Source: Clostridiales bacterium (lineage in GTDB: Bacteria; Bacillota; Clostridia; Caldicoprobacterales; UBA3941). From it: a stretch of DNA of 64,000 nucleotides. This document shows, one piece after another, positions 21,845 to 37,288 of this stretch. Position numbers and translations under genes: made by a program. The stretch is taken from NCBI GenBank assembly GCA_012735575.1, contig JAAYGY010000054.1, positions 3,109 to 67,108 of the forward strand, written 5' to 3'. The notes beneath the pieces are model-generated. The model did not search any database. It saw only the letters and a program-made list of their open reading frames with translations, and was not told the origin of the DNA. The first letter of the stretch is position 1. Every line of letters begins with the position of its first letter.

Positions 21845-24505
21845 TTAATACCCCTTAGATATATCAATAATGCTGCCGTCAATGGCGTTAATAACCACAT
21901 AAGGGTATAGACTATCTGGAGCGGTCACCTGTGAATTACCATCATTATCTTTATAATTAAGATTTTCATAGCCTAAAAAAGTCCATGCAGGCACCATACG
22001 GTAAGCTCCAGGCCGATCCTTGATTCGTATACGCATCAGCCCAAGACATATATCGGTAATATTTATCTCCCCTGAGTCTATATCATCAGAGCTACCGAGC
22101 AATTTGCTTATTGTATATTCCATCTTTACCTGCTTTTTGAATATTTCTATCGCCTCTTCTAAAGTAATTACAGGTACATTGCTGTTTTCCACCTGTACTT
22201 GTTCCATGGGAGAATCCCAGTACAGACTAGTTATTACATCATTTTGCACAGTTACCCTCAGTTGTTCATAGGGGTAAGTATGCGCATACTGATCACTGGC
22301 GCTACTATCTAAACTGCTAAATGGAGCTACATCATGGGCTGCAATTCCTTCATATGAAGGAACAAAAGTCATTCTATACCCATAGACTTCATCTTCATTT
22401 TTATCAATGAAATTTTTATCTAGATTCCCTTCTATATCTACAACTTCATTAATTCCATCTTCTTTTAGTATATCTGATGATGCACTACTAAAATCAGATA
22501 TCATCATACCTGGTAAGGGCTTACCTAAAGTATAACAGTCTGATAGCACCATATTGGTTATACCCATTTGAGCTAGAGTGTCCTGAACCATATCAATGGT
22601 CTCCTCTAGGGTCAATTTTGCAGGTCTGGAATCAAGAGAATCCCAGGTAGGTATACTTCCCTCATTGCCTATAAAACTGGATCCCATAGAAAAATGAGCA
22701 TAGTGGTAGATGTTTTTTGTGGTATCCTGATTAAATACGGTAATCCTTGCATTATAATCAAGCACTTTTGAATCAAGAATTATCATATCTGAATCATAAT
22801 AGTATTTTTGTAACTCCCTTGACTCTTCATCATCCTCATTAAATTCATTTCCCAATATGGCCATATTTTCATAATATGCTCTAGGTCTAAATGTCCAATC
22901 GGTTTCTTTTACCTCAATTGTATTTGGAGCATCCTGATATATATTTTCAAATTCTTCAATGCGCTTTTCAAATTCTGCCTTAACCATCTCAGCGATAGCC
23001 TGGTCTCCACCATAGTATTCCAGTATAGCCTGCTCGTTGCTAATAAACTGCTTGTGCTTTATAATCTCCTCCTCTAGATCTGCCTTACTAAAGCCTACTT
23101 TAGGTTCATAGGCAATGCTGCCTTGAAACAATACTTCTGCCATAGCTTTAACCTGATCCATGTCAATATAGCGAGGCTTAACCTCTACTACAGGCATATT
23201 ACCGGTGGGTAGTGTAACCTCTGCATTAATATTAATAGTTACTCTTTCATCTGCACCTTGGAAAGATTCACTATACTCTGAAAAATCAACCTGCCTGTTT
23301 TGATTAGCGTTGCTTCCCTCAGAATCTGCTTTTGATTGAATAATTTTCTCCAACTTGCCATCGCTCTTGCCTATGACAACAGGTCCTTCCGGTGTAGGCT
23401 GACAGGCTGTGGTAAAGCATACAATACCTATTATCCCTACTAGTAAAAGGGATATGGTCTTTACTGACATTCTGGTTTTATTGGGCTTAAACAAACCCCT
23501 AATTCGTTTTTCCGCCGCAATACGCCCTTTGCCAGCTCCCATAGCTAATCCGCTAAATGCAAAGGGATTATTAGTATTAAATAGACTAATTAAAGTTTGA
23601 GCATAGGCTCTTCGACTTTCAACACCAATTTTTTCAATTACCTCTGCATCGCAAGCTGTTTCCATATCATCAATTATCAAAGAGTTTGCAATGTGAACAA
23701 TAGGGTTAAACCAATATACAACTTTTAATATGGTTAGCAAAAATCTGACAAGATGATCTCTTCGTTTGTAGTGGCTTAACTCATGTAAAAAAATAAATTC
23801 CAGTTCCTTGTCAGTACGGTCTTTTATTAGTCTTGTTGGCAGCAGTATAAGAGGACGAAACCAAGCCGTAAGTGCAGGAGTCTTTATTATATCCTGAAAT
23901 ACCAGGGGGATATCCTTTTTTATTCCAAGCCTTTCTTTGCATTGGGATAATATGTTATAAGCCCTACTATCCCAAAGGCCTTCACTTTTCTTTCTAATAG
24001 AGTAAATACCTCCATAACCCCTTATTACACGACTTAAAGCGACTAATACTCCCAACACCCATATCCTAAGTAGAATAGTCTTTACATTTATCTTAATAAT
24101 TTTTTCTCTTGGTTTAGAGTCAAAATTCCTCTCATTATTTCCCAATTCCTTCACATCAAGCCTGGTTTCTTTTATGGGATAACTTAATTTTGTCTTGTTT
24201 AAATCTGTAAATATACCATTATCATAGGCACTAGCCCTTGTACCATTAGATATATGGTCTTTAGATTCAATATGTTCTACTGTTTTGTTAAATGCTTCAT
24301 GAGATAGAGGGAGAATATTAAAAAATGAATACCCTATTTTAATGTTTACTGGTATCAACAGGCGTATAATCAGCAGAAACCATATAGCATACTGAAATCT
24401 GGCAGACATTCGTGAACCTAAAGCTCTTTTGATTAGAAGAATCACTGCAAAAACCAAACTAGCTGATATATTTGCCCAAATTAGATCTACTATAAAAGTA
24501 TTCAT
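21845..24505 (-). CDS. BlaR1/MecR1-like M56 sensor metalloprotease with an unrecognised ~515-aa extracellular C-terminal domain (paralog A)
   Basis: N-terminal TM helices. The zinc motif FLHELSHYKRRDH (HExxH, aa 241-245) is followed by WFNP, as in peptidase M56. A TM helix at aa 347-366 ends in FTTAC. Then comes a large hydrophilic domain ending ...GAYRMVPAWTFLG...VINAIDGSIIDISKGY. The gene overlaps blaI-like A by 4 nt. Confidence 0.85.
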   Translation of the reverse strand: MNTFIVDLIWANISASLVFAVILLIKRALGSRMSARFQYAIWFLLIIRLLIPVNIKIGYSFFNILPLSHEAFNKTVEHIESKDHISNGTRASAYDNGIFTDLNKTKLSYPIKETRLDVKELGNNERNFDSKPREKIIKINVKTILLRIWVLGVLVALSRVIRGYGGIYSIRKKSEGLWDSRAYNILSQCKERLGIKKDIPLVFQDIIKTPALTAWFRPLILLPTRLIKDRTDKELEFIFLHELSHYKRRDHLVRFLLTILKVVYWFNPIVHIANSLIIDDMETACDAEVIEKIGVESRRAYAQTLISLFNTNNPFAFSGLAMGAGKGRIAAEKRIRGLFKPNKTRMSVKTISLLLVGIIGIVCFTTACQPTPEGPVVIGKSDGKLEKIIQSKADSEGSNANQNRQVDFSEYSESFQGADERVTININAEVTLPTGNMPVVEVKPRYIDMDQVKAMAEVLFQGSIAYEPKVGFSKADLEEEIIKHKQFISNEQAILEYYGGDQAIAEMVKAEFEKRIEEFENIYQDAPNTIEVKETDWTFRPRAYYENMAILGNEFNEDDEESRELQKYYYDSDMIILDSKVLDYNARITVFNQDTTKNIYHYAHFSMGSSFIGNEGSIPTWDSLDSRPAKLTLEETIDMVQDTLAQMGITNMVLSDCYTLGKPLPGMMISDFSSASSDILKEDGINEVVDIEGNLDKNFIDKNEDEVYGYRMTFVPSYEGIAAHDVAPFSSLDSSASDQYAHTYPYEQLRVTVQNDVITSLYWDSPMEQVQVENSNVPVITLEEAIEIFKKQVKMEYTISKLLGSSDDIDSGEINITDICLGLMRIRIKDRPGAYRMVPAWTFLGYENLNYKDNDGNSQVTAPDSLYPYVVINAIDGSIIDISKGY

Positions 24506-25005: not shown

Positions 25006-27657
25006 TTAGTAACCTTTATTTCCATCTATAATACTTCCATCTATAGCATTAATTATGGCATAAGTATTGATAGACTTATCTCCCCCAGGACCTGGTACTG
25101 GTGATAGATAACCTTTGTTCAATATGTCCAGATTCTCACCGACCAGCTTTTCAGTTCCTTCAAATATCCATACTGGTACCATACGATAAGCACCAGGTCG
25201 GTCCTTGATAAGCAAACGCATCAGACATAGGCGTATATTTGTTATATTGATTTCACCTGATTGGATGTTCTTAATGACTTCATTGTAATCATTATGCTTG
25301 GGGTCATACCGGGACAGCTTACCAATGTTATACTCTAGCTGCATCTGTTTTTTGAATATGGCTACCGCTTCTTCAAGATCAATGACGTCTACATTATCAC
25401 TTTCAACATCCACAATCTCCATAGGTGAACTCCAGCTAAAGTAGGTAATCATGTGGTTATTGACATTCACATTCAGGCTTTCATGAGGATAGATATGGAT
25501 AAACTGATCATCATGGCTGCCTAGAGTAAATCTTTCCATATTATAAATAGCAACTCCTCCATATGTGGGAACAAAGGTTAAGGAATAGGTGTATACATCC
25601 TCCCCTTCGGCAGGTTCTGGTATATTTGGCCTCTTTCCTCCTCCGGCAGCCATGCTAAGAGCTGCTTTGGAATTTTCAGGAATAGGTGTGTAATAATCCT
25701 TGTAATGACCGTAAGCTCTAATGCTATCCAATCTCATGTTCCTTATTCCCATCTCTATAAGGGCATTTTCTACCATATCAATGACCTGGTCTTTTGTCAT
25801 CTTCATGGGGCGTGAATCAGCAGGGTCCCAGGTTGCAAAATTTACATCATGCATTCTAGATCCCATATCAAAGGCTACTCCATGAGAATGGTAGTTACCT
25901 TTTTCATGATTATAGGCCTGTATCATAGCATGATAATCGTCAATCCTAGTTACGGCAATAAAGGTTTCTGCATCATATAACTGCTCAGCTGTAATATCCT
26001 CTTCTGGGCGTACACTGGCATCAGCCTCCACCTTATCCATATAATATAACTGTGGATGAAAATTCCAATCTGTTTCTTTAAGAGTCACTTTCTCAGGCGC
26101 GATAGAATACATTTCCTCATACCTTGCAATACGTTGCTGGTAATCAGCTTTTATTTCCTCCACAGCCTCATTATTCCCCCCATATCCTTCCAGTAAGGCT
26201 GCCTCATTGCTCATTTCTTTTTTAAGCTTTATAATCTTATCTTCCAACTGGGATTTGGTCATAGCTATTTGAGGTTCATAGGCAACATTTCCACGAAACA
26301 ATACCTTAGTAATATCTTTAATCTGATCCATAGGTATGTTGTATGGTTTAACCTCAACTACCGGTACATCTCCTTCAGGCACAATTACTTCTGCATCTAT
26401 GTTAACAGTAACCTTCTTATCTGCGCCAGCAAAAGAGTCTGTATACCTTTCTACCAAAGAAGTCTTGTCTTTTCTTTCTTTACCTTCTTTACTGGATCTT
26501 ATTGCTTCCTCCAGTTTACTGCCGTCCTTGCCGATAACTATAGGACTGTCGGGAGTTTTCTGACAAGCGGTAGTAAACCCCATAACTAACATCAAAGTTG
26601 CTAGAAATATGGATATACAAGTCAAAGTTTTGGAATTTTTTTCGAGCTTTACGATCCGTACAATCCTCTTCTTCAGTCTGGACTTATTCCTATACAGGGA
26701 GGTAGTAATAGATGGAATGGGTATGCTTGTATTTTTTGAAATGCGAACAGCCTCTATCAGTGACTGGCCGTATATTAATGGATCACATTTACTTAGATGT
26801 TTTACCACCATTTGATCACAGTAAAGTTCAACATCTTCCTGATACAGGCTATATGCTATCCATACCAATGGATTAAACCAGTGAATAGCCTTTGCCAGTA
26901 ACCAGATATAGTTAATAAGTATATCGTGCCTCTTTATATGATAAACCTCGTGAAATAGAATACTGTTTAAAATGTCCCTGTTCATGTTTTCAATAAAAGA
27001 TGCTGGTAAAAGAATGTTTGGTTTAAAATATCCAAATACAACAGGTGTCTTTACAAAATCACACTCTATTAGTGGAATATACTTTTTTATTCCAACACTT
27101 GCCATATGGTCTTCTTTCATCTGTATTATATTTTTATGGGTAATTGGTTTACAAAACCTAAGCCTGCGCCTAAACGATATTGCTTTCCTTATAGTAGCTA
27201 ATAAAATAGATATGGTACCTGTAATCCATATAAATGAAACAATCATCCATAGGGAAAAATTGTCTTTTTTTGCTCCTTGATTGACTTCTTTCAATAAAGG
27301 TTTCCCTTCATGTGAAGAAGGCAAAAGGTTTTTATGGTTATCAGTTTGACTGACCTGTCTATAAACCGATATATTCCTATTAATCATATTGGTAGAATCT
27401 AAATATAATTCATTAGTATTAGCCAGATCAGTTGCTGACGGTTCCAAAGTAGATGTCCCAGGTAATAATTCATATATTTGTACAGGGCTATATACGGTGA
27501 AAGGCAGACATAGGCGCAATAATACCATTCCCCAAAGAATTAGCATAATTGCTGGGCTAATTCTCTTTGCCATGCTCCTTCTAATTATTATGGCTACAAC
27601 TATCATCAAAGATGCCATAAGGGAAATATGAAATAATACTTTTAATAGGGCAGGCAT
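25006..27657 (-). CDS. BlaR1/MecR1-like M56 sensor metalloprotease with the same unrecognised extracellular domain (paralog B)
   Basis: Zinc motif LFHEVYHIKRHD (HExxH, aa 236-240) followed by WFNP. A TM helix at aa 343-363 ends in FTTAC. The C-terminal domain is colinear with paralog A, for example VTVNIDAEVIVPEGDVPVVEVKP, LKETDWNFHP and GEINITNIRLCLMRLLIKDRPGAYRMVPVW. Confidence 0.85.
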   Translation of the reverse strand: MPALLKVLFHISLMASLMIVVAIIIRRSMAKRISPAIMLILWGMVLLRLCLPFTVYSPVQIYELLPGTSTLEPSATDLANTNELYLDSTNMINRNISVYRQVSQTDNHKNLLPSSHEGKPLLKEVNQGAKKDNFSLWMIVSFIWITGTISILLATIRKAISFRRRLRFCKPITHKNIIQMKEDHMASVGIKKYIPLIECDFVKTPVVFGYFKPNILLPASFIENMNRDILNSILFHEVYHIKRHDILINYIWLLAKAIHWFNPLVWIAYSLYQEDVELYCDQMVVKHLSKCDPLIYGQSLIEAVRISKNTSIPIPSITTSLYRNKSRLKKRIVRIVKLEKNSKTLTCISIFLATLMLVMGFTTACQKTPDSPIVIGKDGSKLEEAIRSSKEGKERKDKTSLVERYTDSFAGADKKVTVNIDAEVIVPEGDVPVVEVKPYNIPMDQIKDITKVLFRGNVAYEPQIAMTKSQLEDKIIKLKKEMSNEAALLEGYGGNNEAVEEIKADYQQRIARYEEMYSIAPEKVTLKETDWNFHPQLYYMDKVEADASVRPEEDITAEQLYDAETFIAVTRIDDYHAMIQAYNHEKGNYHSHGVAFDMGSRMHDVNFATWDPADSRPMKMTKDQVIDMVENALIEMGIRNMRLDSIRAYGHYKDYYTPIPENSKAALSMAAGGGKRPNIPEPAEGEDVYTYSLTFVPTYGGVAIYNMERFTLGSHDDQFIHIYPHESLNVNVNNHMITYFSWSSPMEIVDVESDNVDVIDLEEAVAIFKKQMQLEYNIGKLSRYDPKHNDYNEVIKNIQSGEINITNIRLCLMRLLIKDRPGAYRMVPVWIFEGTEKLVGENLDILNKGYLSPVPGPGGDKSINTYAIINAIDGSIIDGNKGY

Positions 27658-27658
27658 T

Positions 27659-28045
27659 TTACTCGCCCCCCTTACCTTTCAAATCCTGAATCAGCCTTTC
27701 CAGTTCATCAAGGTCGTCATCAGTAATTTTTTCGGCTTCTACAAATCTAGCAATCATATGAGGTAAATTTCCGTAATACTTGCTAATTACACTGTTGGCC
27801 TTATCAGCAGCATATTCTTCCCTTGAAACAATAGGGTAGTAACTGTATGATCTCCTGTTTCCTTCTTTGACTCCTACCAGGCCTTTTTCCATAAGCCTAT
27901 TTAGGTATGTATTTACGGTTTGACGTGACCAGTTAAGTATATCCTTAACTTCCTTTTGAATTTTCATGCTGGTGGATACACCATCCCGCCATAGGATTTC
28001 CATGATAATGCTATCTGCCTCAGTTAAATCAGGATATTTACTCAT
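27659..28045 (-). CDS. BlaI/MecI/CopY-family winged-helix repressor (paralog B)
   Basis: 128 aa. LTEADSIIMEILWRDGVSTSMKIQKEV...WSRQTVNTYLNRLMEKGLVGVKEGNRRSYSYYP. The stop lies 1 nt before the blaR-B start. GGGGGG RBS. Confidence 0.85.
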   Translation of the reverse strand: MSKYPDLTEADSIIMEILWRDGVSTSMKIQKEVKDILNWSRQTVNTYLNRLMEKGLVGVKEGNRRSYSYYPIVSREEYAADKANSVISKYYGNLPHMIARFVEAEKITDDDLDELERLIQDLKGKGGE

Positions 28046-28068
28046 ATTAGTTGGCCCCCCTAAAAAAC

Positions 28069-28125
28069 TTTCGACGTAACACTTACGTCTATAATAAGAC
28101 TACAATATTACGTCGAAAATGTCAA
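28069..28125 (-). promoter_or_regulatory. Candidate promoter/operator region of the blaI-B/blaR-B pair
   Basis: Dyad GACGTAA-CAC-TTACGTC at 28073-28089. A third copy, TTACGTCGAAA (28108-28118), is the inverted repeat of TTTCGACGTAA (28069-28079). On the minus strand there is TTGACA (28125-28120), a 17-nt spacer containing the distal half-site, then a weak -10 TAGTCT. Confidence 0.5.
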
Positions 28126-28129
28126 GGGG

Positions 28130-29128
28130 TTATTTCTTTGGAAATAAGGATTTTCTCACAATCACCATGGTTTCCATATTAACGTTTTGCACCTTATCCC
28201 CTTTTATCTTTTTTAAAAGGAGTTCCATAACTTTTTTACCTAATTCATAATGGGGTACATGGACAGTGGTTAAAGGGGGTGTCAGATAACGGCTAAGATT
28301 TAGATTGTCAAATCCCACTACTGAAACATCATAAGGTATTTTCAGCATTAGATCATTGATAGCAGAATAAACAGCAGGGGCTAGGTAGTCATTGCCAGTA
28401 AAGATGGCAGTCGGCCGTTTATAGCGGGTTAGCATTTCTATGACGCTTGAATAGGCATAATCCGGAGTATCACCATCTATGTAGACAATATCCGGGTCAA
28501 ATTCAATACCATGATCTGATAATACCTTACGGTAGGCTTGTAATCTATAGTCTGGTTCCTTTGAAGACCTTAATCTTCTTGCAGTCAAAAAACCTATTCT
28601 TCGGTGACCGCTATTAACAACATATTCCAATAGCTTGACTGCTCCTGCATAAAGGTCCAGGTTCACCAATATAATTTCAGGATCAAACCCCTTATATCCT
28701 TCATTACCAACAAACACTGTTGGTATTCTATACCTTGTAAACCTATTAACATCCTCTATTGCTAGCTTATCTGTAGACATAACAATACCATCGAACTGAC
28801 GCTTGATAAGTTCATCAATATACTCTTTATCCTCCCGGGCATTTAAAATGGAGATAATGTAACCATTTTTAAAGGCCTCTTCCTCCATCCCTAAAGCCAG
28901 TTCTGCAAAATATGGGTTGGAAATACCGTTGGTAACCAGGGCTATCTGATTAGTTTCACGGGTCTTTAGACTTCTTGCCACTAAATTAGGTTTATACCCT
29001 AATTCATCGATAGCCTTCCAAACCAATTCTCTAACTTCCTTACTAACCCCTGGCTTGTTATTAATAACATTTGATACTGTTGCTACTGAAACATGTGCCC
29101 TTTTAGCCACGTCTTCTCTAGTTACCAT
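28130..29128 (-). CDS. LacI-family transcriptional regulator
   Basis: The N-terminal HTH is VTREDVAKRAHVSVATVSNVINNKPGVSKEVRELVWKAIDELGYKPNLVARSL. It is followed by a periplasmic-binding-protein-like effector domain. Confidence 0.9.
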   Translation of the reverse strand: MVTREDVAKRAHVSVATVSNVINNKPGVSKEVRELVWKAIDELGYKPNLVARSLKTRETNQIALVTNGISNPYFAELALGMEEEAFKNGYIISILNAREDKEYIDELIKRQFDGIVMSTDKLAIEDVNRFTRYRIPTVFVGNEGYKGFDPEIILVNLDLYAGAVKLLEYVVNSGHRRIGFLTARRLRSSKEPDYRLQAYRKVLSDHGIEFDPDIVYIDGDTPDYAYSSVIEMLTRYKRPTAIFTGNDYLAPAVYSAINDLMLKIPYDVSVVGFDNLNLSRYLTPPLTTVHVPHYELGKKVMELLLKKIKGDKVQNVNMETMVIVRKSLFPKK

Positions 29129-29221
29129 ATGCCCTCCTGTACTTTAAATATTTCCAATTAATTATATATCACAAGTTTTTGTCTTTCAAGGAATGCCTGA
29201 TAGATATAATCCGGCAAATAG

Positions 29222-29250
29222 AAATAAAAAAATCCGAGCTAAACTCGGAT
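29222..29250 (-). terminator. Rho-independent terminator ending the feo-linked operon
   Basis: On the minus strand: ATCCGAG-TTTAG-CTCGGAT followed by TTTTTTTATTT. It begins 3 nt after the stop at 29253. Confidence 0.7.
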
Positions 29251-29252
29251 AA

Positions 29253-29834
29253 TTATAAATGTTTCAAATAAGTCTTTTTAACTTTAAAACTACTTATCAT
29301 TAGAAGGGATAACAAAACTATAATAAAGGTATTCTCTAAATTTATGGTGCTTTGACTTACTAATTTCAATCTATACACCGTATCCAGTAAATGTTTTCCT
29401 CCCATGACCATCCCTGCTACAGTTATGGGGAGGCCTATTATATATCTTTCATCCGTTGAAATATTGTACCTTGCCAGCCTAAATATACCTCCACCTATAA
29501 ACAATAATGATACTGTAATTTCCCTTATTCCCAATAACCCGTTATTTATGTTCCACCACAATACAATGGGAGCCATTCCAAAGGATACCAGATCACTTAA
29601 AGAATCAAGTTCCCTACCGAATTTGCTAGTAATCCTCAGCTTTCTAGCCACATAACCATCCAGTTTGTCAGTAATCCCCGCTATTACAACTAATAAAGCA
29701 GCAATTTTAATATTAACAGGGGTATTGTTTGTACTTATAAAAATAGCTATTGCCCCTAAGGACATATTTACGTAGGTGATTGCACTGGGTAGTATATGCA
29801 GTTTTGACAATCTATCACATTCTAACCTCAACAT
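29253..29834 (-). CDS. CDP-alcohol phosphatidyltransferase, phosphatidylserine-synthase-like (PssA-like)
   Basis: Exact CDP-alcohol motif DKLDGYVARKLRITSKFGRELDSLSDLVSFGMAP (D-x2-DG-x2-AR-x8-G-x3-D-x3-D). The GRELDS..DLVSFG.AP context resembles Bacillus-type PssA rather than PgsA. I chose the start at 29834 (AAGGTGA RBS), which overlaps the upstream gene by 20 nt. Confidence 0.8.
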   Translation of the reverse strand: MLRLECDRLSKLHILPSAITYVNMSLGAIAIFISTNNTPVNIKIAALLVVIAGITDKLDGYVARKLRITSKFGRELDSLSDLVSFGMAPIVLWWNINNGLLGIREITVSLLFIGGGIFRLARYNISTDERYIIGLPITVAGMVMGGKHLLDTVYRLKLVSQSTINLENTFIIVLLSLLMISSFKVKKTYLKHL

Positions 29835-30834
29835 TATTATCACCTTTCCTGTCTCTTGCTAAAGCAAAGACATTATCCAGCATCAAAATAAAACCGCTTA
29901 TTACAAATTCAAACCAGAAAGTTACAAATCTAAAAATAAAAGCTACAGTTAACCCCATCTCCATAGATATTCCCCTAATAATTAGGAGAATCAACATGGA
30001 ACCTTCAAAACTACCTACACTACCCGGAAGCATAGGGACCATTCCCATTATATAAGTAAGAAAGGTTATAGCCCCTATGGATATATAGTCCATCTTTATA
30101 GCTAGCCCCCTCAAAACCAACAACAGCTTAAAAGCATAAAAAATCCAAATAAAAAGGGCAAGAAACATTTGAAAAGAGAATTTCCTCTTATCCCTTAAAA
30201 AATCTCTTATTATGCTACTGTAGTCTATAAGGGTTTTATCTATTTTGTCCATCAATCTGGTTTTACCTAAAAACTTTCTAAGTAGCTTATTAACCAAAGC
30301 GGGTTTAAAGGAAAACAAGATTATAATTCCTAAAAAAACAACAAACATAACTAAAACCAGAGAAAAGACATATAAATAATGCCTATATTTTATACTCATT
30401 GTAAAGCTAAACCAAATTAGGCTTAGCAGAGTCAAAAAAATAAAGCTAAGAAGACTTAGAGTTTTCTGTAGACCGATAATAATTATGGCTTTTCCAAAAT
30501 CTATCCTTAACCTTTTTTTCAGTTCATAGACCCTTGCCAACTCTCCACCGGCCTTTACCCCCGGGGTAATAGCATCTACCACGTTTCCTTTTGCATTCAT
30601 CATGAGCATGTCCAAAAAAGACACATTTTGTTTAACCCGTAGAGCCATCGACCTCCATTGCAGGGCTAAAAGAAGCTTTGTAATGCATTGCGCCAGCAGC
30701 AATAAGGCTATTGTTTTGGGGGATAGGGACCTGATATGGTCAGCTACCTCTTTCCAATCGGTTTTTATTATAATAAGTACTACTGCTATAGCACCCAGGG
30801 CATAAAGGAAACCCTTAAAATGTTTTTCTTTCAT
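29815..30834 (-). CDS. Flippase-like polytopic membrane protein (UPF0104 / lysyl-PG-synthase TM-region-like)
   Basis: ~8 TM segments. The N-terminus KGFLYALGAIAVVLIIIKTDWKEVADHIRSLSPKTIALLLLAQCITKLLLALQWR has the layout I associate with the MprF flippase-domain family. I chose the start at ATG 30834 (AGGTGA RBS); the GTG at 30843 is an alternative. Confidence 0.65.
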   Translation of the reverse strand: MKEKHFKGFLYALGAIAVVLIIIKTDWKEVADHIRSLSPKTIALLLLAQCITKLLLALQWRSMALRVKQNVSFLDMLMMNAKGNVVDAITPGVKAGGELARVYELKKRLRIDFGKAIIIIGLQKTLSLLSFIFLTLLSLIWFSFTMSIKYRHYLYVFSLVLVMFVVFLGIIILFSFKPALVNKLLRKFLGKTRLMDKIDKTLIDYSSIIRDFLRDKRKFSFQMFLALFIWIFYAFKLLLVLRGLAIKMDYISIGAITFLTYIMGMVPMLPGSVGSFEGSMLILLIIRGISMEMGLTVAFIFRFVTFWFEFVISGFILMLDNVFALARDRKGDNNVEVRM

Positions 30835-30844
30835 ATTAGTCACC

Positions 30845-31411
30845 TTAGATTTTTACCATAAGCAGAATTTCATCCATAGTTTTACCCCTGCTTTCTAATG
30901 AAAAACTACTAATTTCTATAGCTTTATCACTTATAAAGTCATCGCTTATGTTAGAATAAAGAGGTTTTAATATCTTTCTTGGCACCCTCACTATTATTCT
31001 ATTTCCTTCCCTTGACTTCTCCCATATATTTTCCAGTACCTCTTCTTTTGGACTTACCTGCTGGGCTATATGAATTACATCGTAAGGTTCTATGTCTATA
31101 TCCTGTCCTCTTGCATTAAATACAGTTATTTTTTCCTGTAAATTCAGTCTGGATACCACATTCCTGGCGGATTTTACAGCTTTGCTATCTATATCCACCA
31201 CATGAACCTGAGCCTTTGTTTGTTTCGCGATCTCTATAGCCGTTGAGGGAATAGATCCTCCCCCAATACATAATACCCTATCCCAGTTTCTTATATTGGC
31301 CAGGGCTATTTCATTTTTAACTATGCCCCTGTAGTAGAGGCAGTACAGTTCTACTAAGACATCATATTTTGAACAAATTTTTTCTATCCATTTTGTGCAT
31401 GTTCTTATCAT
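30845..31411 (-). CDS. Small Rossmann-fold SAM-binding protein, nicotianamine-synthase-like by motif pattern
   Basis: VLCIGGGSIPSTAIEIA (compare the NAS G-S-G-P-L-P-L-T loop), VHVVDIDSKAV, ITVFNARGQD, YDVIHIAQQV and RIIVRVPRKILKPLYSNISDD (compare the NAS ...R....G.R..LYP.V ending). 188 aa. It starts 6 nt after the feoB stop. Confidence 0.55.
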   Translation of the reverse strand: MIRTCTKWIEKICSKYDVLVELYCLYYRGIVKNEIALANIRNWDRVLCIGGGSIPSTAIEIAKQTKAQVHVVDIDSKAVKSARNVVSRLNLQEKITVFNARGQDIDIEPYDVIHIAQQVSPKEEVLENIWEKSREGNRIIVRVPRKILKPLYSNISDDFISDKAIEISSFSLESRGKTMDEILLMVKI

Positions 31412-31417
31412 TGTATC

Positions 31418-33178
31418 CTACCCCATCAATCCTAATATAAGGCGGCCAACTTGGTTAAATAATCCTCCGAATAAGAAGGCAGAAACGATGGTAATTAATG
31501 CAATAAACAGAGCTGTTTTTAAGGAGAACTCTTTCGTAAGCACGCCAAAAACCGATAAACAGGGTAAATAGAATAGGGCTACAATAGCTCCCACAGTTAG
31601 TTGTAATGTATTTAAATTCATTTCCAACATGGGAAGTACTGCCAGTTCCCTTCTAATTATCCCCAGCAATAGGGAAAGACTAGCTTCTTTTGGCAGCCCC
31701 AGCCATCCCTCGACAAAGGGACCTAGTAACTTACTGAATTCATTAAGTATGCCGGTTTCTGCAATAATTGCTGCCACAATTATACCGATAAACATAGCGC
31801 CTTCAGCATCCATCATGAAATGCTTCATTCTAAGTTTCAGTTTTTTCTTGTAGGCATCCTTATCCGGTAACAATAAATTAGGTACCTCTAATAGCATAGG
31901 CTGACTTTTACCTGGTATTATCCTGTCTAATATAACTCCTACTGCCAGCATTGCTAGTATGGATAAGAGGTAAACAAATATCAAAGCAAAAATAGATTTA
32001 TCTCCTAAAAGAGCAAAAAAGGCTCCGCTTTGAGAAGCACATGGAACAGCAAAGGAAACTAAAGCAGCTACCATTATCCTTTCTTTATTAGTATTTGCAG
32101 CTCTAGTACCTAAAATGGCAGGAACAGCACAGCCATAACCCAGCATCATGGGTATGATATTACCTCCCTGAATACCTATACGCCTAAGCACTCCATCTGC
32201 TAAAACGCCGATTCTGGGTAGGTACCCACTATCTTCTAAGAAAGAAAAGACAACATAGAATAAAAAGACATAAGGAAGGATAAGTGCAAAAGGCCATTCT
32301 ATACCAATGACCAAAATACCAAACTCTCCTACTAAAACATTTCTAAATATGCCTGCAGGTATTACCAAGGATATTATCTTAGTAAGAAAGGGCACAATAA
32401 CCTGCTTGACCAAGGGTAAAAGGACTACAGCTCTTAAAGCTTTCCCGCCCCCTACTACTACTCCCAAAGAAGCAATGAGCACCAATATTGCAATAGGTAT
32501 TCCAGGCCAGGGTTGTATAGTCCAGTCTTCTAATTTTTCAATAAAGGTAAGCTCCTTATCAACCTGGGCTTGAACTTTACTGACTATCTCCTTTATCCTG
32601 TTCCATTTTTCTTCCTCATCTAATTTTGGCTCAGAATCTTTTCTCTCTTTTGACAGCTTAACAGCCGTCTGCATTAGCTCCCGCAGACCCTGATTTTTAA
32701 TGGCTACAGTTGGAATTACGGGACTGCCCAGTTCCTCAGCCAACTTTTCTGCATCAATCTTAATACCTTGTCTTTCAGCAACATCCATTAGGTTTAGGCA
32801 GTATATTATAGGAATAGGATATTCCTTTAATTCAAATGCCAAGCCTAGATTTCGTTCTAAATGGGTAGCATCCAGTACACAAATGACAACATCTGCGCCT
32901 TCTTCCAGTAAAGCAACAGCAACTTTCTCTGCTTCCGATGTAGCCTCCAGGGAATATGTACCGGGCACATCTATCATTACACCCTGTTGCTTACCAAAAT
33001 TAATATCGCCTATGGTGTAATCCACTGTAGTTCCTGTATAATTTGAACTATCTACATGAACACCTGTGAGTTTTGAGAATACTACACTCTTACCCACGTT
33101 GGGATTTCCCATAAGCAATATTTTCATTTTATTATTACCGGGTTTCACCTGAGCAGCAGCGTCTCCATGACAATTCAA
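31418..33178 (-). CDS. feoB: Ferrous iron transporter FeoB
   Basis: The G-domain is MKILLMGNPNVGKSVVFSKLTG...DVPGTYSL...LNLMD. It is followed by a polytopic membrane domain. The TTG start at 33178 overlaps the feoA stop, with a GAGGAGG RBS inside the feoA 3-prime end. The ATG at 33127 is the alternative start. Confidence 0.9.
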   Translation of the reverse strand: MNCHGDAAAQVKPGNNKMKILLMGNPNVGKSVVFSKLTGVHVDSSNYTGTTVDYTIGDINFGKQQGVMIDVPGTYSLEATSEAEKVAVALLEEGADVVICVLDATHLERNLGLAFELKEYPIPIIYCLNLMDVAERQGIKIDAEKLAEELGSPVIPTVAIKNQGLRELMQTAVKLSKERKDSEPKLDEEEKWNRIKEIVSKVQAQVDKELTFIEKLEDWTIQPWPGIPIAILVLIASLGVVVGGGKALRAVVLLPLVKQVIVPFLTKIISLVIPAGIFRNVLVGEFGILVIGIEWPFALILPYVFLFYVVFSFLEDSGYLPRIGVLADGVLRRIGIQGGNIIPMMLGYGCAVPAILGTRAANTNKERIMVAALVSFAVPCASQSGAFFALLGDKSIFALIFVYLLSILAMLAVGVILDRIIPGKSQPMLLEVPNLLLPDKDAYKKKLKLRMKHFMMDAEGAMFIGIIVAAIIAETGILNEFSKLLGPFVEGWLGLPKEASLSLLLGIIRRELAVLPMLEMNLNTLQLTVGAIVALFYLPCLSVFGVLTKEFSLKTALFIALITIVSAFLFGGLFNQVGRLILGLMG

Positions 33179-33396
33179 TTTTGTACAACCTCCTCAACCA
33201 GAATCTCATTTGCAATATCATAATCAATGGCTATGCTTCTATTACCAACCTTGACTACTATAGGCCCCTTAAAAGGTTGTTTACTTTGAATTGTAAACTG
33301 TGTCCCCTTTCTGAAACCCAGAACTTTTAATAAATGTGAACTAGGTAATGCTTGAATTCTATAGGTGGATAATTTTTCTCCATGTGCTAAAGGCAT
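33175..33396 (-). CDS. feoA: FeoA family protein
   Basis: 73-aa SH3-like protein. RIQALPSSHLLKVLGFRKGTQFTIQSKQPFKGPIVVKVGNRSIAIDYDIANEILV. GAGGAGGA RBS. Confidence 0.85.
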   Translation of the reverse strand: MPLAHGEKLSTYRIQALPSSHLLKVLGFRKGTQFTIQSKQPFKGPIVVKVGNRSIAIDYDIANEILVEEVVQN

Positions 33397-33423
33397 TATG
33401 ATCCTCCTCTTGTATAATCAATA

Positions 33424-33440
33424 TTGATAATCATTATCAA
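33424..33440. promoter_or_regulatory. Fur box upstream of feoA
   Basis: TTGATAATCATTATCAA is a perfect palindrome that contains the 7-1-7 Fur consensus TGATAAT-N-ATTATCA exactly. It lies 28 nt upstream of the feoA ATG. The -10 candidates TATACT and TATTAT abut it on the minus strand. Confidence 0.75.
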
Positions 33441-33650
33441 CTATAATATAGTATAGCATAGATTTTTATATTTCTCCATAGCTTTGTGAAAATTTTATTT
33501 AAAATACACAATTTAACCTGTTCCGCCAGTTCGGCCTTTAAATCTTTATTCATATAATGGCTGTTGACAAGTGATCGCCTTCGCTGATTTGGCTTTAGAA
33601 AACTTGGCTTATGGAATGCAAAAAAACCGTAGCCTAGGCAGGATACCAAA

Positions 33651-33680
33651 GGGAAAATGGCTTAACTGATCCATTTTCCC
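33651..33680 (-). terminator. Rho-independent terminator after the heterodimeric ABC exporter genes
   Basis: The 10-bp arms gggaaaatgg / ccattttccc flank a 10-nt loop. On the minus strand the hairpin is followed by TTTGG. It lies 70 nt downstream of the stop at 33751. Confidence 0.55.
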
Positions 33681-33750
33681 CTTACTCAATCCCTAATCAC
33701 ACTTATTGCATTTTTGTTCACTATTTTTATAATTACAAGTATATCAAGTA

Positions 33751-35535
33751 TTACACAGCATTTAGATATTTATACTGTGCTTTATATAAGTCATAGTAAG
33801 CACCTTTTTGAGCCAGTAATTCTTCATGGCTGCCTGCTTCTATTATAGTTCCCTGATCAACTACCATAATACGATCTGCATTTCGTATGGTTGACAGTCT
33901 ATGGGCAATAACAAAGGATGTTCTACCTTTTAGTAATCGTTCAAGTCCCTTTTGTACTAAAATCTCGGTTTGGGTATCTATACTTGAGGTAGCCTCATCC
34001 AGGATTAAGATTCTTGGATCGGCCAGCAGTGCTCTAGCGAAGGAGATTAACTGCTTTTGTCCTTGAGATAATTTAGAACCCCGCTCATTTACCTCGGTAT
34101 AATAGCCCTTTTCCATTTGAGAGATGAATTCATGGGCATGTACAGCGCGTGCTGCATTCATTACTTCCTCATCAGTAGCATCCAGTTTACCATACCTTAT
34201 ATTATCCATGATAGTTCCCGAGAATATGAAACTATCCTGCAGCATTACTCCCATCTGCTTTCTAAGAGAATCCAAGGTAACTTTTTTTATATCATGCCCG
34301 TCGATTAATACTTTTCCTTTAACGGGATCATAAAAACGGCTAATTAGATTTACTATAGTACTCTTCCCGGCACCTGTAGGTCCAACCAAGGCAATAGTTT
34401 CTCCGGGTTTAACAGTAAAATCCACATACTCTAATACTGGTTTTTCAGGGTCATAGTAAAATTGTAAATTATCAAACCTTACCTCGCCTTTTATTTCAGG
34501 CAGCTCATAGGCATCAGGATCGTCCTTGATATCTGGCTTGGTATCCAATAATTCAAAAATTCTTTCAGTAGATGCCATAGCTACCAACAGGGAATTATAA
34601 AAGTTGGCCAGGTTGTTAATGGGCTGCCATATTCTCCATACATAGCCGGTAAAAGCAACCAGTACACCCACGGTGACGGTACCAGCATCCAAAAACCTCA
34701 TACCAAATACATAAACCAATACTACTCCTAATACTCCTATCAACTCTATACCAGGCCAGAATAAATTATTAACCCTAATGGCATGCATCCATGTAGTAAA
34801 TATATCTCCACTTAGCTCATTATATAAATCCCTTGTCTCCTTCTGTCTTACAAAGGCCTGGGTAACTCTCATACCAGCCAGGTTTTCATGAAGATAGGCA
34901 TTCATATTGGAGCTTTTCTTTCTTACTTCCTGCCATCTTCTACGTATACGTCTTTTCAATAATCCGACTAATATCATTAATAGAGGTACCGTGCAAAGGG
35001 TAACCAATGTTAACCTGGCATCAATGTAAGCCATTATTACTATGGCTATTATAAGTGTGAATACGTCAGTTAAAACATTTATTATACCATTGGTTAACAG
35101 GTCTCCCAAAGAGTTAACATCATTAATTATGCGCACTAAAATTTTTCCGGCAGGCCGACTATCATAAAATGTAAAGGATAGGGTCTGTATATGTTCAAAT
35201 AGGTCCTGCCGTATCCTGTACAGGATTTTCTGTCCTACTGATGACATTATATATACTCTCTGTCTCATACATACCATATTTACCAGGTTAGTTGCCAGAT
35301 ATAGCATGGTAATTATGGTTAATCCCCTGTAATCAGCAACTTCTATATAATCATCAATGGCTATTTGTAGAAAATATGGTCCCAACAAACCGCACACAGC
35401 AGCCACCATCATCAATATAAGGGTTATGACAATCTGTTTACGATAGGGTTTCATATATCTGACTAGTCTCTTAAACTGGTCCATATCAAAAGGCTTTTCC
35501 AGTTCTTCATCATCTATGAGTCTATTTTTTAACAC
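33751..35535 (-). CDS. ABC exporter, fused TMD-NBD half-transporter (subunit with consensus Walker B, degenerate signature)
   Basis: 594 aa. Walker A GPTGAGKST, signature LSQGQKQLISFARA (degenerate) and Walker B ILILDEATSSID. Confidence 0.9.
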   Translation of the reverse strand: MLKNRLIDDEELEKPFDMDQFKRLVRYMKPYRKQIVITLILMMVAAVCGLLGPYFLQIAIDDYIEVADYRGLTIITMLYLATNLVNMVCMRQRVYIMSSVGQKILYRIRQDLFEHIQTLSFTFYDSRPAGKILVRIINDVNSLGDLLTNGIINVLTDVFTLIIAIVIMAYIDARLTLVTLCTVPLLMILVGLLKRRIRRRWQEVRKKSSNMNAYLHENLAGMRVTQAFVRQKETRDLYNELSGDIFTTWMHAIRVNNLFWPGIELIGVLGVVLVYVFGMRFLDAGTVTVGVLVAFTGYVWRIWQPINNLANFYNSLLVAMASTERIFELLDTKPDIKDDPDAYELPEIKGEVRFDNLQFYYDPEKPVLEYVDFTVKPGETIALVGPTGAGKSTIVNLISRFYDPVKGKVLIDGHDIKKVTLDSLRKQMGVMLQDSFIFSGTIMDNIRYGKLDATDEEVMNAARAVHAHEFISQMEKGYYTEVNERGSKLSQGQKQLISFARALLADPRILILDEATSSIDTQTEILVQKGLERLLKGRTSFVIAHRLSTIRNADRIMVVDQGTIIEAGSHEELLAQKGAYYDLYKAQYKYLNAV

Positions 35536-35536
35536 C

Positions 35537-37288
35537 TTACATCACCTGCCTATCTTCTGTAAATTCCTCGAAATCCTTATACTGCTGAGAGTATATCTCA
35601 AAATACTTTCCTCGCTGTTTGACCAGTTGATCATGGGTACCTCTTTCAACAATTTGCCCGTCATCTAAAACTATGATCTCATCAGCATCTTTAACCGAAG
35701 ATATTCTATGGGCGATAATGAATGTAGTCCTTCCTTCCATAATATCCTTAAGTGCCTGCTGAATTGCATACTCCGTTTCCATATCCACAGCTGAAGTACA
35801 GTCGTCCATAATAAGTATCTTAGGATTCTTAATTATTGCCCTGGCAATAGCAATTCTCTGCTTTTGTCCTCCAGATAGTCCCATACCACGTTCTCCAACA
35901 ATGGTGTCATATCCTTGAGGCATTTCCATTATAAAATCATGGGCAGCAGCAATTTTTGCAGCCTTTATTACATCCTCTCTGGTAGCATCAGGTTTACCAT
36001 ACATTATATTTTCCTCAATTGTAGCAGAAAAGAGGAAAACATCCTGCATAACAATTCCTATATTCTCTCTTAAAGTATTAGTCTTCCAATCCCTTACATC
36101 CACTCCATCAACCAAAACCCTGCCTCTGGATACATCATAGAAGCGATTGAGAGCGTTGATAATAGAGGTTTTTCCAGCTCCAGTAGCCCCCATAATTGCA
36201 ACGGTTTTTCCTGCAGGGGCATCTATGTCTATATTCTTTAAGGCTTGGTGATCACCGTAATGCAAGGCTACACCTTCAAATCTAACATGACCTTGTACCT
36301 CTTGTGGATCATATGGGTTTTCCTTATCTACTACAATAGATCCAGTATCCAGCACATTAAAAACTCTTTCACCGGAAGATACTGCCTGCTCCATAACATT
36401 GATTACCCATCCCAACATTCTCATTGGGTTTATTAGCATCCATAAATAATTATTAAAAGCAACCAATGTTCCTAGTGAAATCTCTCCCCCAGCTACCATC
36501 CGACCTCCAAACCATAAAACAGAGACTGCACATAGACCTGATATAAAGTCCATTAGGGGAAAGAATTTAGCCCATATCCTGGCAGAATTAACGTTTTTCT
36601 CTAAGTTAAGTCTATTTTCCTTTTCGAATTTTTGGATTTCAAACGCTTCCCTGGCAAAGGCCTTTACTACTCTTACCCCGGCAATATTTTCCTGAGTTGT
36701 AGTGTTCAGGGCAGCCTGCTGCTCCCTGATGGCACTAAATGCCGGACGAATACGGGTATCAAATCTCATGGCCAACCAGGCTACGAAGGGCAAAACCGCC
36801 AAACTGACCAAGGCCAACTTGACATTCATAGCTAAAAGAATAATAGAGGTTCCTACAAAATAGATAAAGTTTTCAATAAATATGGTTATTCCACCGGCAA
36901 TGAAAGCCCTTATACCTTCAAGGTCTCCGGTCATCCTTGACATCAGTTCACCTATGCGGTTGTTATCAAAGTATGTAAAGGATTGACCTTGTAAATGGGT
37001 AAACATTTCATTTCTAAGATCATACATACAACTTTGAGAAACCTTCTCAAAGAAATATCCACGAAAATATAGGGATAATCCTTTTACAGCTGATATTATT
37101 ACCATGGCAAATAGAAGCACAGGTAATAGCTTACGATTTCCACCATGTATAACATCGTCAATTATACTCTTAGAAATAAGTGGAGTAATCATATTGAGAA
37201 AAATGACAAAAATTAAAAGGGTCACGGCTGCAATAGCCTTTCCCCTGTACCTTCCAATATAACCCAATATTCGTTTGATAATAAACAA
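35537..37288 (-). CDS. ABC exporter, fused TMD-NBD half-transporter (subunit with Asp replacing the catalytic Glu)
   Basis: 583 aa. Walker A GATGAGKTS, signature LSGGQKQRIAIARA and Walker B ILIMDDCTSAVD (D instead of E). TTG start with a GAGGGGG RBS. The stop lies 1 nt before the partner gene. Confidence 0.9.
   Translation of the reverse strand: MFIIKRILGYIGRYRGKAIAAVTLLIFVIFLNMITPLISKSIIDDVIHGGNRKLLPVLLFAMVIISAVKGLSLYFRGYFFEKVSQSCMYDLRNEMFTHLQGQSFTYFDNNRIGELMSRMTGDLEGIRAFIAGGITIFIENFIYFVGTSIILLAMNVKLALVSLAVLPFVAWLAMRFDTRIRPAFSAIREQQAALNTTTQENIAGVRVVKAFAREAFEIQKFEKENRLNLEKNVNSARIWAKFFPLMDFISGLCAVSVLWFGGRMVAGGEISLGTLVAFNNYLWMLINPMRMLGWVINVMEQAVSSGERVFNVLDTGSIVVDKENPYDPQEVQGHVRFEGVALHYGDHQALKNIDIDAPAGKTVAIMGATGAGKTSIINALNRFYDVSRGRVLVDGVDVRDWKTNTLRENIGIVMQDVFLFSATIEENIMYGKPDATREDVIKAAKIAAAHDFIMEMPQGYDTIVGERGMGLSGGQKQRIAIARAIIKNPKILIMDDCTSAVDMETEYAIQQALKDIMEGRTTFIIAHRISSVKDADEIIVLDDGQIVERGTHDQLVKQRGKYFEIYSQQYKDFEEFTEDRQVM

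Follow-up and report, generated by a model that had tools for sequence, protein, structure and literature searches.

Feo is the most widespread bacterial importer of Fe(II), and both its accessory factors and the delivery of Fe(II) are poorly understood. In the stretch of Clostridiales DNA considered here (64,000 nucleotides of contig JAAYGY010000054.1; "the window" below means this whole stretch, and positions count from its first letter), the genes feoA and feoB are followed, with almost no space between them, by three more, which encode a short protein resembling nicotianamine synthase (NAS), a flippase-like membrane protein (FLP), and a PssA-like CDP-alcohol phosphatidyltransferase. What could an iron importer want with an enzyme from a family known for metal chelators and with two proteins that look as if they belong to lipid metabolism? 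An initial annotation, made from the letters alone, had ventured an answer: that a cell short of iron builds a phospholipid with a modified head group, perhaps one extended by aminocarboxypropyl units, flips it to the outer leaflet, and so comes to possess a metallophore anchored in its own membrane. Here, we take that answer apart and ask of each piece how well the genes of this bacterium and its relatives bear it out.

NAS-like and FLP genes accompany feoAB across Bacillota

Is the arrangement an accident of a single genome? A scan of species-representative genomes yielded 36 loci with a NAS-like gene (in Tissierellia, Tepidanaerobacter, Alkaliphilus, Alkalithermobacter, Desulfitispora, Heliorestis, Peptococcaceae, Evansella, and Pelagirhabdus), and a scan of metagenomes, for which a remote clade of 11 sequences (33-44% identical to the NAS-like protein of the window) served as the seed, yielded 31 more. 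The five window proteins were mapped onto all of these loci, and removal of duplicates left 62 non-redundant loci spread over several classes of Bacillota. In 57 of the 58 loci that could be tested, the NAS-like gene comes directly after feoB; it is itself followed on the same strand by FLP in 56 of 59; and a PssA-like gene comes after FLP in 34 of 58 (~59%). The arrangement, found again in about 60 independent loci, goes well beyond anything that chance would produce, and the NAS-like and FLP genes are a near-obligate accessory of this type of feoAB across Bacillota. Judged from such neighbourhoods, a functional link between the module and Feo seems to us highly probable.

The tightest link in the module is the one from feoB to the NAS-like gene, with a median gap of approximately 17 nt between the stop of the first and the start of the second. 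Across the loci, the identities of FeoB, the NAS-like protein, and FLP to their window counterparts are rank-correlated (rho 0.80-0.91), which fits a module inherited as a unit. The initial annotation had spoken of a tightly coupled trio and had suggested a survey of gene neighbourhoods as a check on it. The survey confirms that the extra genes keep company with feoAB, and it also trims the trio: since PssA is present in only some three-fifths of the loci, the conserved accessory unit is the pair of NAS-like and FLP genes, with PssA as a frequent but optional fifth gene. At one locus (L022, 7995-10401), the pair stands without feoAB, convergent with a gene for a PlsC-type 1-acylglycerol-3-phosphate acyltransferase (PF01553) and followed by mgtE. 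When all open reading frames (ORFs) in the flanks of 37 loci were clustered, no further recurring partner was found, lineage-specific neighbours aside; in particular, these flanks held no gene for an opine dehydrogenase, a racemase, or a metallophore importer or exporter, and no psd.

How is the unit built in the window itself? The five genes, all on the minus strand, show apparent translational coupling, with a Fur box ahead of them and one strong terminator behind. A predicted promoter-like site of the sigma-A type, found by consensus scan at 33450-33478 on the minus strand (TGGAGA, 17 nt, TATACT, and a TG extension, so that the extended -10 reads TGcTATACT), lies directly upstream of the Fur box, a predicted operator at 33424-33440. 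The latter, TTGATAATGATTATCAA, is a perfect 8-1-8 palindrome that reads TTGATAATCATTATCAA on the plus strand, and it contains the 7-1-7 Fur consensus of the B. subtilis type, TGATAATNATTATCA, at 33425-33439 with zero mismatches; nowhere else in the 64-kb window is there a match with two mismatches or fewer. It sits 9 nt downstream of the -10 element and ~30 nt upstream of the feoA ATG.

From there on, the genes leave one another hardly any room. feoA (33175-33396, minus strand, 73 aa), which starts behind a GAGGAGG ribosome-binding site, shares 4 nt with feoB, the stop of the one lying over the start of the other; feoB (31418-33178, minus strand, 586 aa) begins with TTG at 33178, with a GAGGAGG of its own 10 nt upstream; and a gap of 6 nt separates it from the NAS-like gene. 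The stop of the latter, TAA, is followed by two candidate starts for FLP, GTG 30843 and ATG 30834, of which the ATG is the more likely, given the AAGGTGA 5 nt upstream of it. The PssA-like gene likely starts at ATG 29834, with AGGAAAGG upstream, and its first 20 nt are shared with the end of FLP, whose stop lies at 29815. Directly after this fifth gene comes the intrinsic terminator (29222-29250, minus strand), ATCCGAGTTTAGCTCGGAT and then TTTTTTATTT, with an 8-bp stem that includes four GC pairs and a T7 tail at 29250-29232; it is the strongest terminator-like site in 28000-34500, and the other candidates within the cluster have stems of 5 bp or T tails of poor quality.

When positions 29100-33700 were read again, every sequence-level particular that had first been reported (Fur box, overlaps, gaps, starts, motif, and single terminator) was there, and so was the architecture of a single operon, with its spacing, its overlaps, its promoter and Fur box, and its one terminator. 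On these signals, the best explanation is that feoA-feoB-NAS-FLP-PssA forms one Fur-repressed transcription unit. The signal for Fur control is also conserved: Fur-box-like sites (two mismatches or fewer, within 150 nt upstream of feoA) are found at 27 of the 43 related loci that could be tested, against 0.011 expected per upstream window of this kind, and they usually lie 32-90 nt upstream of feoA.

The two importer genes are readily recognized. FeoA matches the Pfam family of that name (E=2.4e-13, 50 bits against a gathering cutoff of 23), and the position of its gene is kept in related loci. FeoB scores 324.6 against a cutoff of 315.65 for TIGR00437 and carries, by Pfam, FeoB_N (E=5e-49), two Gate domains (E=6e-24), and FeoB_C (E=2.5e-7), with GNPNVGKS at residues 24-31 of its G domain. 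At one related locus (L062, 2341-4122), an extra, divergent feoB-like gene (28-35% identity, in fragments) lies upstream of the feoA-feoB-NAS-FLP-PssA module. Other genes near the module include one for an AraC-family regulator, convergent just downstream of the PssA-like gene at eight loci of the Tissierellia/Tepidanaerobacter type (for example, L006, 10131-10799, minus strand), and one for an iron-dependent repressor of the DtxR family, 1.3 kb downstream at L041 (8842-9222, minus strand). Lineage-specific neighbours in Alkaliphilus are an amidase gene and an unknown ORF of 194 aa.

A minimal relative of nicotianamine synthase

What, then, does the gene next to feoB encode? It runs from 31411, where its ATG lies, to 30845 on the minus strand, and its product is a protein of 188 aa that we predict to be an aminocarboxypropyl transferase dependent on S-adenosylmethionine (SAM). 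The simplest doubt is that the protein might be an ordinary class I SAM methyltransferase, one that N-methylates phosphatidylethanolamine (PE) or phosphatidylserine (PS), for example, and that its likeness to NAS goes no further than the Rossmann fold. One might cite its weak matches to many methyltransferase families in Pfam and NCBIfam (E 1e-3 to 1e-5), a GenBank record that labels a member of the family "class I SAM-dependent methyltransferase," and a Foldseek list that, below rank 12, is filled by methyltransferases. However, NAS alone among the Pfam families passes its gathering cutoff with this protein (PF03059, 36.4 bits against 27.1, covering profile positions 120-239 of 276). A profile of the NAS-like family, built from 20 homologues and compared with the PDB, reaches MtNAS at E=6e-20 and CntL at 6e-14, as opposed to ~1e-4 for the best methyltransferases, a preference of 10 to 16 orders of magnitude. 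Likewise, the AF2 model of the 188-aa protein (pLDDT 88) finds nothing except MtNAS and CntL at Foldseek ranks 1-12, with a query-normalised TM of up to 0.78 over 185-203 columns, and the alignment spans nearly the full length, including two helices before the Rossmann core.

The residues agree with the scores. The invariant Y27 aligns with the catalytic Tyr107 of MtNAS (the Y of "PRY" at 105-107, which is Y106 in AtNAS1), and E34, R142, and Y152 have their counterparts in MtNAS as well. From sequence profiles and the modelled fold, we assign the protein to the NAS/CntL family of aminocarboxypropyl transferases and not to the methyltransferases, and we regard the methyltransferase explanation as very improbable.

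The kinship is with a trimmed version of the enzyme. Matches cover MtNAS from about residue 104 and CntL from about residue 109 onward, and in the PDB searches, whether with the profile or with N-terminal fragments, the alignment of the NAS-like protein begins only at about its residue 25. The core architecture of NAS comprises ~255-280 aa with an N-terminal helical domain, and throughout the NAS-like family this domain, ~80-100 aa of it, is absent. The NAS-like identity first proposed is therefore upheld as to family, and it is narrowed as to form. Nor is the protein an orthologue of CntL, the score for the CntL equivalog NF033601 being 53.8 against a cutoff of 350. Its own family is a large one, with at least 174 representatives (clusters at 50% identity, E<=1e-30, exhaustive profile search), nearly all of 165-225 aa, and has as its signatures YYxxxVxxE (near position 26) and LCIGGGxxP (near position 47). 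Invariant in 37 members (28-44% identity) are E10, Y26, Y27, E34, G50, G52, P55, A116, Q118, and R142. The protein of the window has no hydrophobic segment and is soluble and basic (pI 8.6); all 20 members examined have a pI of 8.1-9.5, which is weak evidence that they might bind to an anionic membrane surface.

One locus (L021, 1857-2444, plus strand) has a second, divergent NAS-like paralogue directly after FLP. It is 195 aa long, scores 43 bits with Pfam NAS, and retains E10, Y27, E34, R142, and Y152, and its IGSGPFP is closer to the canonical NAS and CntL sequences. Two such enzymes at one locus could carry out two successive alkylation steps.

With feoB so close at hand, might the enzyme act on Feo itself? 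It might modify or regulate FeoA or FeoB, by aminocarboxypropylation of a residue or as a SAM-sensing subunit, and FLP and PssA would then help to insert the Feo complex into the membrane or provide its lipid surroundings. The near-absolute adjacency of feoB and the NAS-like gene and their apparent translational coupling would suit such a role, and the acp-transferase TYW2 (Foldseek rank 19) is an example of the fold at work on a macromolecule. Another argument is P0267, a single ORF of 592 aa from a high-GC source, in which two short NAS-like domains are followed by a C-terminal FeoA domain. Fusion or read-through alike, its sequence indicates that NAS-like genes occur next to feoA outside the low-GC Firmicutes and in a different gene order; provided that it is no artefact, it would also support a physical tie of the NAS-like enzyme to Feo. 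But P0267 may owe its existence to ORF calling that read through from one gene into the next in a high-GC contig, the NAS family offers no precedent for an action on proteins, and fusions between FLP and PssA, which we describe below, would be left unaccounted for. We consider this explanation, too, very improbable.

Two proteins with ties to lipids

The second member of the conserved pair is FLP (29815-30834, minus strand; 339 aa, or 342 aa from GTG 30843), a membrane protein of the flippase-like PplT/UPF0104/LPG_synthase_TM type with eight hydrophobic segments. Its matches to PF03706 (E=3.6e-42, 145 bits against 33.4) and to TIGR00374 (115 against 43.2) are clear, and PF03706 is the only domain that it has: the C-terminal aminoacyl-phosphatidylglycerol (PG) synthase domain of bifunctional MprF was not found in it (NF033480, 32 against a cutoff of 600). 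The likeness to MprF extends to the fold, by way of a homologous fusion protein, P0180, which is 42% identical to the window FLP and whose N-terminal domain matches the cryo-EM structures of MprF (9j8s, 7duw, 7f47, and 6lvf; E=6e-6 to 3e-4). On this sequence and model evidence, we place FLP in the MprF flippase family. As a rule, PplT domains occur in fusion with lipid enzymes or beside them (10.1101/2022.03.11.483950). A UPF0104 protein of Haloferax volcanii, HVO_1859, is up 11.6-fold under iron starvation (PMC11349517), and its induction may, by analogy, be an independent hint that ties proteins of the PplT type to iron limitation. Among more distant relatives, P0189, a FLP with 30% identity, still lies within a full five-gene module, and P0194, the next-most-distant, lies outside any feo context.

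The fifth gene (29253-29834, minus strand) encodes a CDP-alcohol phosphatidyltransferase of 193 aa (PF01066, E=2e-19), for which the pssA model TIGR00473 gives a marginal 111.6 against a cutoff of 107. Its D-x2-DG-x2-AR-x8-G-x3-D-x3-D motif is complete (DKLDGYVARKLRITSKFGRELDSLSD), and its best PDB match is the PS synthase of M. jannaschii, MjPSS (E=1.5e-15). D62, S63, and D66 of MjPSS correspond to its D79, S80, and D83, and R101 and R104 to the two Arg of RLAR (for the roles of the Ser1-site residues and of Arg101 and Arg104, see PMC8633023); against these stand two substitutions, F105 to Y and A59 to R. In the alignment, the PssA-like protein retains the catalytic and serine-site (Ser1) residues of a true PS synthase, and the earlier assignment gains by it. 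At the level of domains, indeed, all the family assignments of the initial annotation survive the combined evidence of Pfam and NCBIfam, profiles, and folds.

A sign that these two proteins belong together comes from sequences in which they are one. A search with FLP homologues, confirmed with Pfam, found FLP::PssA fusions in P0180 (Tepidimicrobium xylanilyticum, 517 aa) and P0182 (529 aa), and the gene for P0180 occupies the expected slot, in the order feoA-feoB-NAS-(FLP::PssA). In the AlphaFold model of P0180 (pLDDT 90), a disordered linker at 330-337 joins the two halves. The C-terminal domain is closest to MjPSS (E=8e-7, 31% identity), as against 1.5e-2 for PgsA, and the only PDB matches of the whole protein below 1e-3 are MjPSS for this domain and MprF for the N-terminal one. 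Fusions in the same operon slot support the lipid-directed role that had been proposed, for FLP and PssA at least.

Must the NAS-like enzyme, then, work on a lipid, too? It might instead make a soluble chelator, a small aminocarboxylate akin to nicotianamine or xNA that is built from SAM and one free amino acid, and the ligand might either buffer cytoplasmic Fe(II) as it leaves FeoB or be exported by FLP to solubilise Fe(II) outside; PssA would stand at the end of the operon for unrelated or supportive reasons. Soluble amino acids are, after all, what plant NAS, MtNAS, and CntL all use (PMC10248798). The tightest link of the module, too, is between feoB and the NAS-like gene, and it persists at two loci without FLP (L067 and L073); P0267 joins NAS-like domains to FeoA, a cytoplasmic protein; and in 41% of the loci, PssA can be dispensed with. 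However, an exporter of soluble ligands would be a stranger in the FLP family, which is known or inferred to handle lipids only, and it would be odd to find it fused to a phospholipid synthase in the same operon context. A PssA-like gene that recurs in more than half of the loci, in overlapping or near-abutting frames, is hard to call incidental. The clustered flanks lack the importer, exporter, opine dehydrogenase, and racemase genes that were sought there, and the NAS-like enzyme is without an N-terminal domain of the kind seen in NAS and CntL. We judge a soluble product to be unlikely, if still deserving of a hearing.

A second way out accepts the lipid and gives up the chelator. The modified and flipped phospholipid might alter the surface charge, the packing, or the lipid environment of FeoB, and in this way aid FeoB under iron limitation or at high pH or protect the membrane from Fe(II)-driven damage. 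All the evidence for a lipid link serves this explanation equally well, and so, perhaps, do the hosts. Named carriers (L001-L036) are skewed toward alkaliphilic and alkalitolerant taxa, with four Alkaliphilus, two Alkalithermobacter, Desulfitispora alkaliphila, Heliorestis acidaminivorans, two Evansella, and Pelagirhabdus alkalitolerans among them, or they come from high-ammonia digesters and alkaline sites; metagenome-assembled genomes from anaerobic digesters are also common. In alkaliphiles, membrane composition is a known adaptation. The same skew suggests a link to the scarcity of Fe(II) at high pH, and in that sense it fits a chelating function without proving one. Further in favour of a change in membrane properties, the characterised systems in which a synthase is joined to a UPF0104 flippase (MprF, gpgSDF, and hexSDF) all act through surface charge (PMC12713373; 10.1101/2022.03.11.483950). 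But the explanation does not tell us why the coupling to feoAB and to Fur boxes should be near-absolute or why an enzyme should have been recruited from the one SAM-dependent family whose products are metal chelators, and an aminocarboxypropyl group on PS or PE would shift the net charge little in comparison with the head groups of lysyl- or glucosaminyl-PG. We think it rather unlikely.

The window holds other genes around the operon. Just upstream of the Fur-box promoter, on the same strand, lies a heterodimeric ABC exporter pair (35537-37288 and 33751-35535, minus strand), which we considered as a metallophore exporter and rejected: only three close relatives have the pair, and a hairpin that follows it, GGGAAAATGG...CCATTTTCCC (~33650-33690), and the Fur-box promoter intervene, so that it falls outside the module. 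An ORF of 70 aa with a TTG start (33437-33649, minus strand), which overlaps the region of the feoA promoter and the Fur box, matches no family and is unlikely to be a real gene. Elsewhere, two paralogous proteins of 883-886 aa that combine a BlaR1 M56 peptidase with DUF6034 are encoded at 21845-24505 and 25006-27657 (minus strand), and a gene for a BlaI/MecI-type penicillinase repressor (27659-28045, minus strand) precedes the second of them, in what looks like a duplicated signal-sensing pair.

A possible metallophore in the membrane and its known relatives

We can now imagine how the pieces might work as one. At the cytoplasmic leaflet, the PssA-like enzyme would supply PS, and where its gene is absent, housekeeping PS or PE would do. 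The truncated NAS-like enzyme would add one or more SAM-derived 3-amino-3-carboxypropyl units to the amine of the head group, FLP would move the modified lipid outward, and the head group, now a nicotianamine-like aminocarboxylate, would bind Fe(II) and raise its local availability for FeoB. Cells would gain most from this when the pH is alkaline or when they live in anoxic surroundings rich in sulfide and carbonate, with little free Fe(II) to be had. PS makes a good candidate acceptor, since it amounts to an alpha-amino acid that carries a lipid for a side chain and in this resembles the Glu and His with which MtNAS and CntL start (PMC10248798). Since MjPSS excludes even threonine (PMC8633023), PS first and alkylation afterward is a likelier order than a PssA that takes a pre-made, bulky alcohol. 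At the level of whole systems, MprF, gpgSDF, and hexSDF would serve, by analogy, as a precedent (PMC12713373).

A good deal weighs against so complete a story, and it is best set down in one place. The absence of PssA from ~41% of the loci means that PS from a dedicated synthase is not essential. At L067 (58% GC) and L073, feoB and the NAS-like gene stand with no FLP gene in the next 2.8-7 kb (at L073, a MacB-type ABC pair is convergent downstream), and at L066, FLP is convergent with the NAS-like gene and overlaps its end; taken together, these architectures imply that the NAS-like function may not strictly need FLP. No NAS::FLP fusion was found among the best 150 NAS-like representatives or among 46 FLP matches. 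We know of no precedent for a lipid-bound chelator that hands Fe(II) to FeoB. In NAS enzymes, a pair of Glu and Tyr is reported to be essential (PMC10248798), and although the short family has an invariant E10 in the helix that precedes the Tyr, this residue comes 17 positions before it instead of the 26 of the catalytic Glu; it may or may not correspond to Glu81 of MtNAS and Glu84 of CntL (E77 in AtNAS1), as the N-terminal helices fail to align by sequence. All characterised enzymes of the NAS family act on soluble amino acids, not on lipids (PMC10248798), and in the PplT family, flippase function has been demonstrated only for MprF (10.1101/2022.03.11.483950; PMC12713373).

Where does this leave us? 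Genes and models allow different degrees of belief for different parts of the story. That the module modifies and translocates a lipid seems to us somewhat more likely than not. That Feo is co-expressed with a dedicated module for head-group modification and translocation, and that the product chelates Fe(II) for FeoB, is a proposal that we would put somewhat below an even chance. That the product is specifically a serine or ethanolamine head group extended by aminocarboxypropyl units, and thus both a new class of membrane lipid and a membrane-anchored Fe(II) metallophore that hands its metal to FeoB, is more doubtful still, and we hold to it tentatively. The membrane-anchored metallophore is a coherent hypothesis and, unproven as it is, the best reading of the evidence.

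In the literature that we searched, there was no description of feoB together with NAS-like, PplT, or PssA genes and none of PS or PE modified with an aminocarboxypropyl group. A survey of opine zincophores used CntM as its handle (PMC7438024) and would for that reason not have seen the module; a survey of PplT proteins mentions rare fusions with SAM methyltransferases, and iron, Feo, and NAS do not appear in it (10.1101/2022.03.11.483950). What the loci define, in any case, is a conserved, Fur-box-associated variant of Feo that is tied to an enzyme of the nicotianamine/staphylopine family and to lipid-handling proteins. If the hypothesis is true, there is a new head-group chemistry for phospholipids, and lipids become a new class of substrate for NAS-type enzymes; an orphan PplT flippase acquires a concrete function and the stand-alone PplT its first assigned physiological partner in metal homeostasis; a third mode of iron acquisition joins free-ion transport and secreted siderophores; and in habitats that are alkaline and anoxic, cells have a new strategy for acquiring Fe(II) despite its poor solubility. 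Should the product prove soluble after all, a large and uncharacterised family of minimal NAS enzymes would remain, dedicated to Feo. Cultured hosts exist (Tissierella simiarum, Tepidimicrobium xylanilyticum, Alkaliphilus spp., Evansella spp., and Tepidanaerobacter), which makes the hypothesis directly testable.

How strange is such a module when it is held up against systems that are already known? The best sequence and fold matches of its enzyme are CntL, MtNAS, and plant NAS, with which it has in common the SAM motif GxGxxP, a catalytic Tyr, equivalents of E34, R142, and Y152, and a context of metal acquisition under a metalloregulator. Unlike them, it is ~80-100 aa shorter, the N-terminal helical domain being the part that it does without, and unlike the Cnt system, the module has no CntK, CntM, CntABCDF, or CntE-type genes. 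Its NAS-like gene is linked instead to lipid genes and to Feo, a transporter of Fe(II) as the free ion and not as a metallophore complex. Mycobactin and the amphiphilic siderophores are chelators held at or in the cell envelope, made by NRPS/PKS and specific for Fe(III). The proposed lipid would resemble them in being held in the envelope, a likeness that is functional only and, for now, hypothetical; unlike it, they are not phospholipid head groups, and they have dedicated importers.

BtaA belongs to what we take to be a protein family unrelated to the NAS-like enzyme. It is a SAM:diacylglycerol 3-amino-3-carboxypropyl transferase of DGTS betaine-lipid synthesis (PMC3972451) and, as an enzyme that puts the aminocarboxypropyl group of SAM onto a membrane lipid, the sole lipid precedent of this kind in the literature searched (PMC3972451). 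It differs in its acceptor, which is the hydroxyl of diacylglycerol and not an amine, in being induced by limitation for phosphate and not for iron, and in having no flippase or transporter at its side.

For the architecture of the module, the models are MprF and its relatives. MprF, too, has an eight-TM PF03706 domain and couples a head-group-modifying activity in the cytoplasm to a translocator, and its enzymatic domain is C-terminal, as it is in the FLP::PssA fusions. Unlike MprF, the module has no aminoacyl-tRNA-dependent synthase domain, its partner being a separate, SAM-dependent NAS-like protein; it has a Fur box and feoAB, whereas MprF is regulated by antimicrobial-peptide sensing. In gpgSDF of P. 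aeruginosa (for glucosaminyl-PG) and hexSDF of C. difficile (for an aminohexosyl glycolipid), soluble cytoplasmic head-group enzymes are followed by a stand-alone UPF0104 flippase-like protein (PMC12713373), and this is the operon plan of the module as well. Their enzymes, however, are a GT4 glycosyltransferase and a deacetylase, their product is a cationic glycolipid, and in neither case is there a link to a metal transporter or to a Fur box. With the canonical Fur-controlled FeoABC and FeoAB systems, finally, the module has in common the overlapping feoA and feoB behind a Fur box and a FeoB with G domain, Gate, and FeoB_C; it departs from them in having no FeoC and, instead, two or three accessory genes of the NAS and lipid types, enzymatic or membrane-bound. 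All of its components belong to known families, and what is particular to it is the combination: a Feo system with a synthase-plus-flippase accessory module in the style of MprF and GpgSDF, built around a minimal NAS enzyme.

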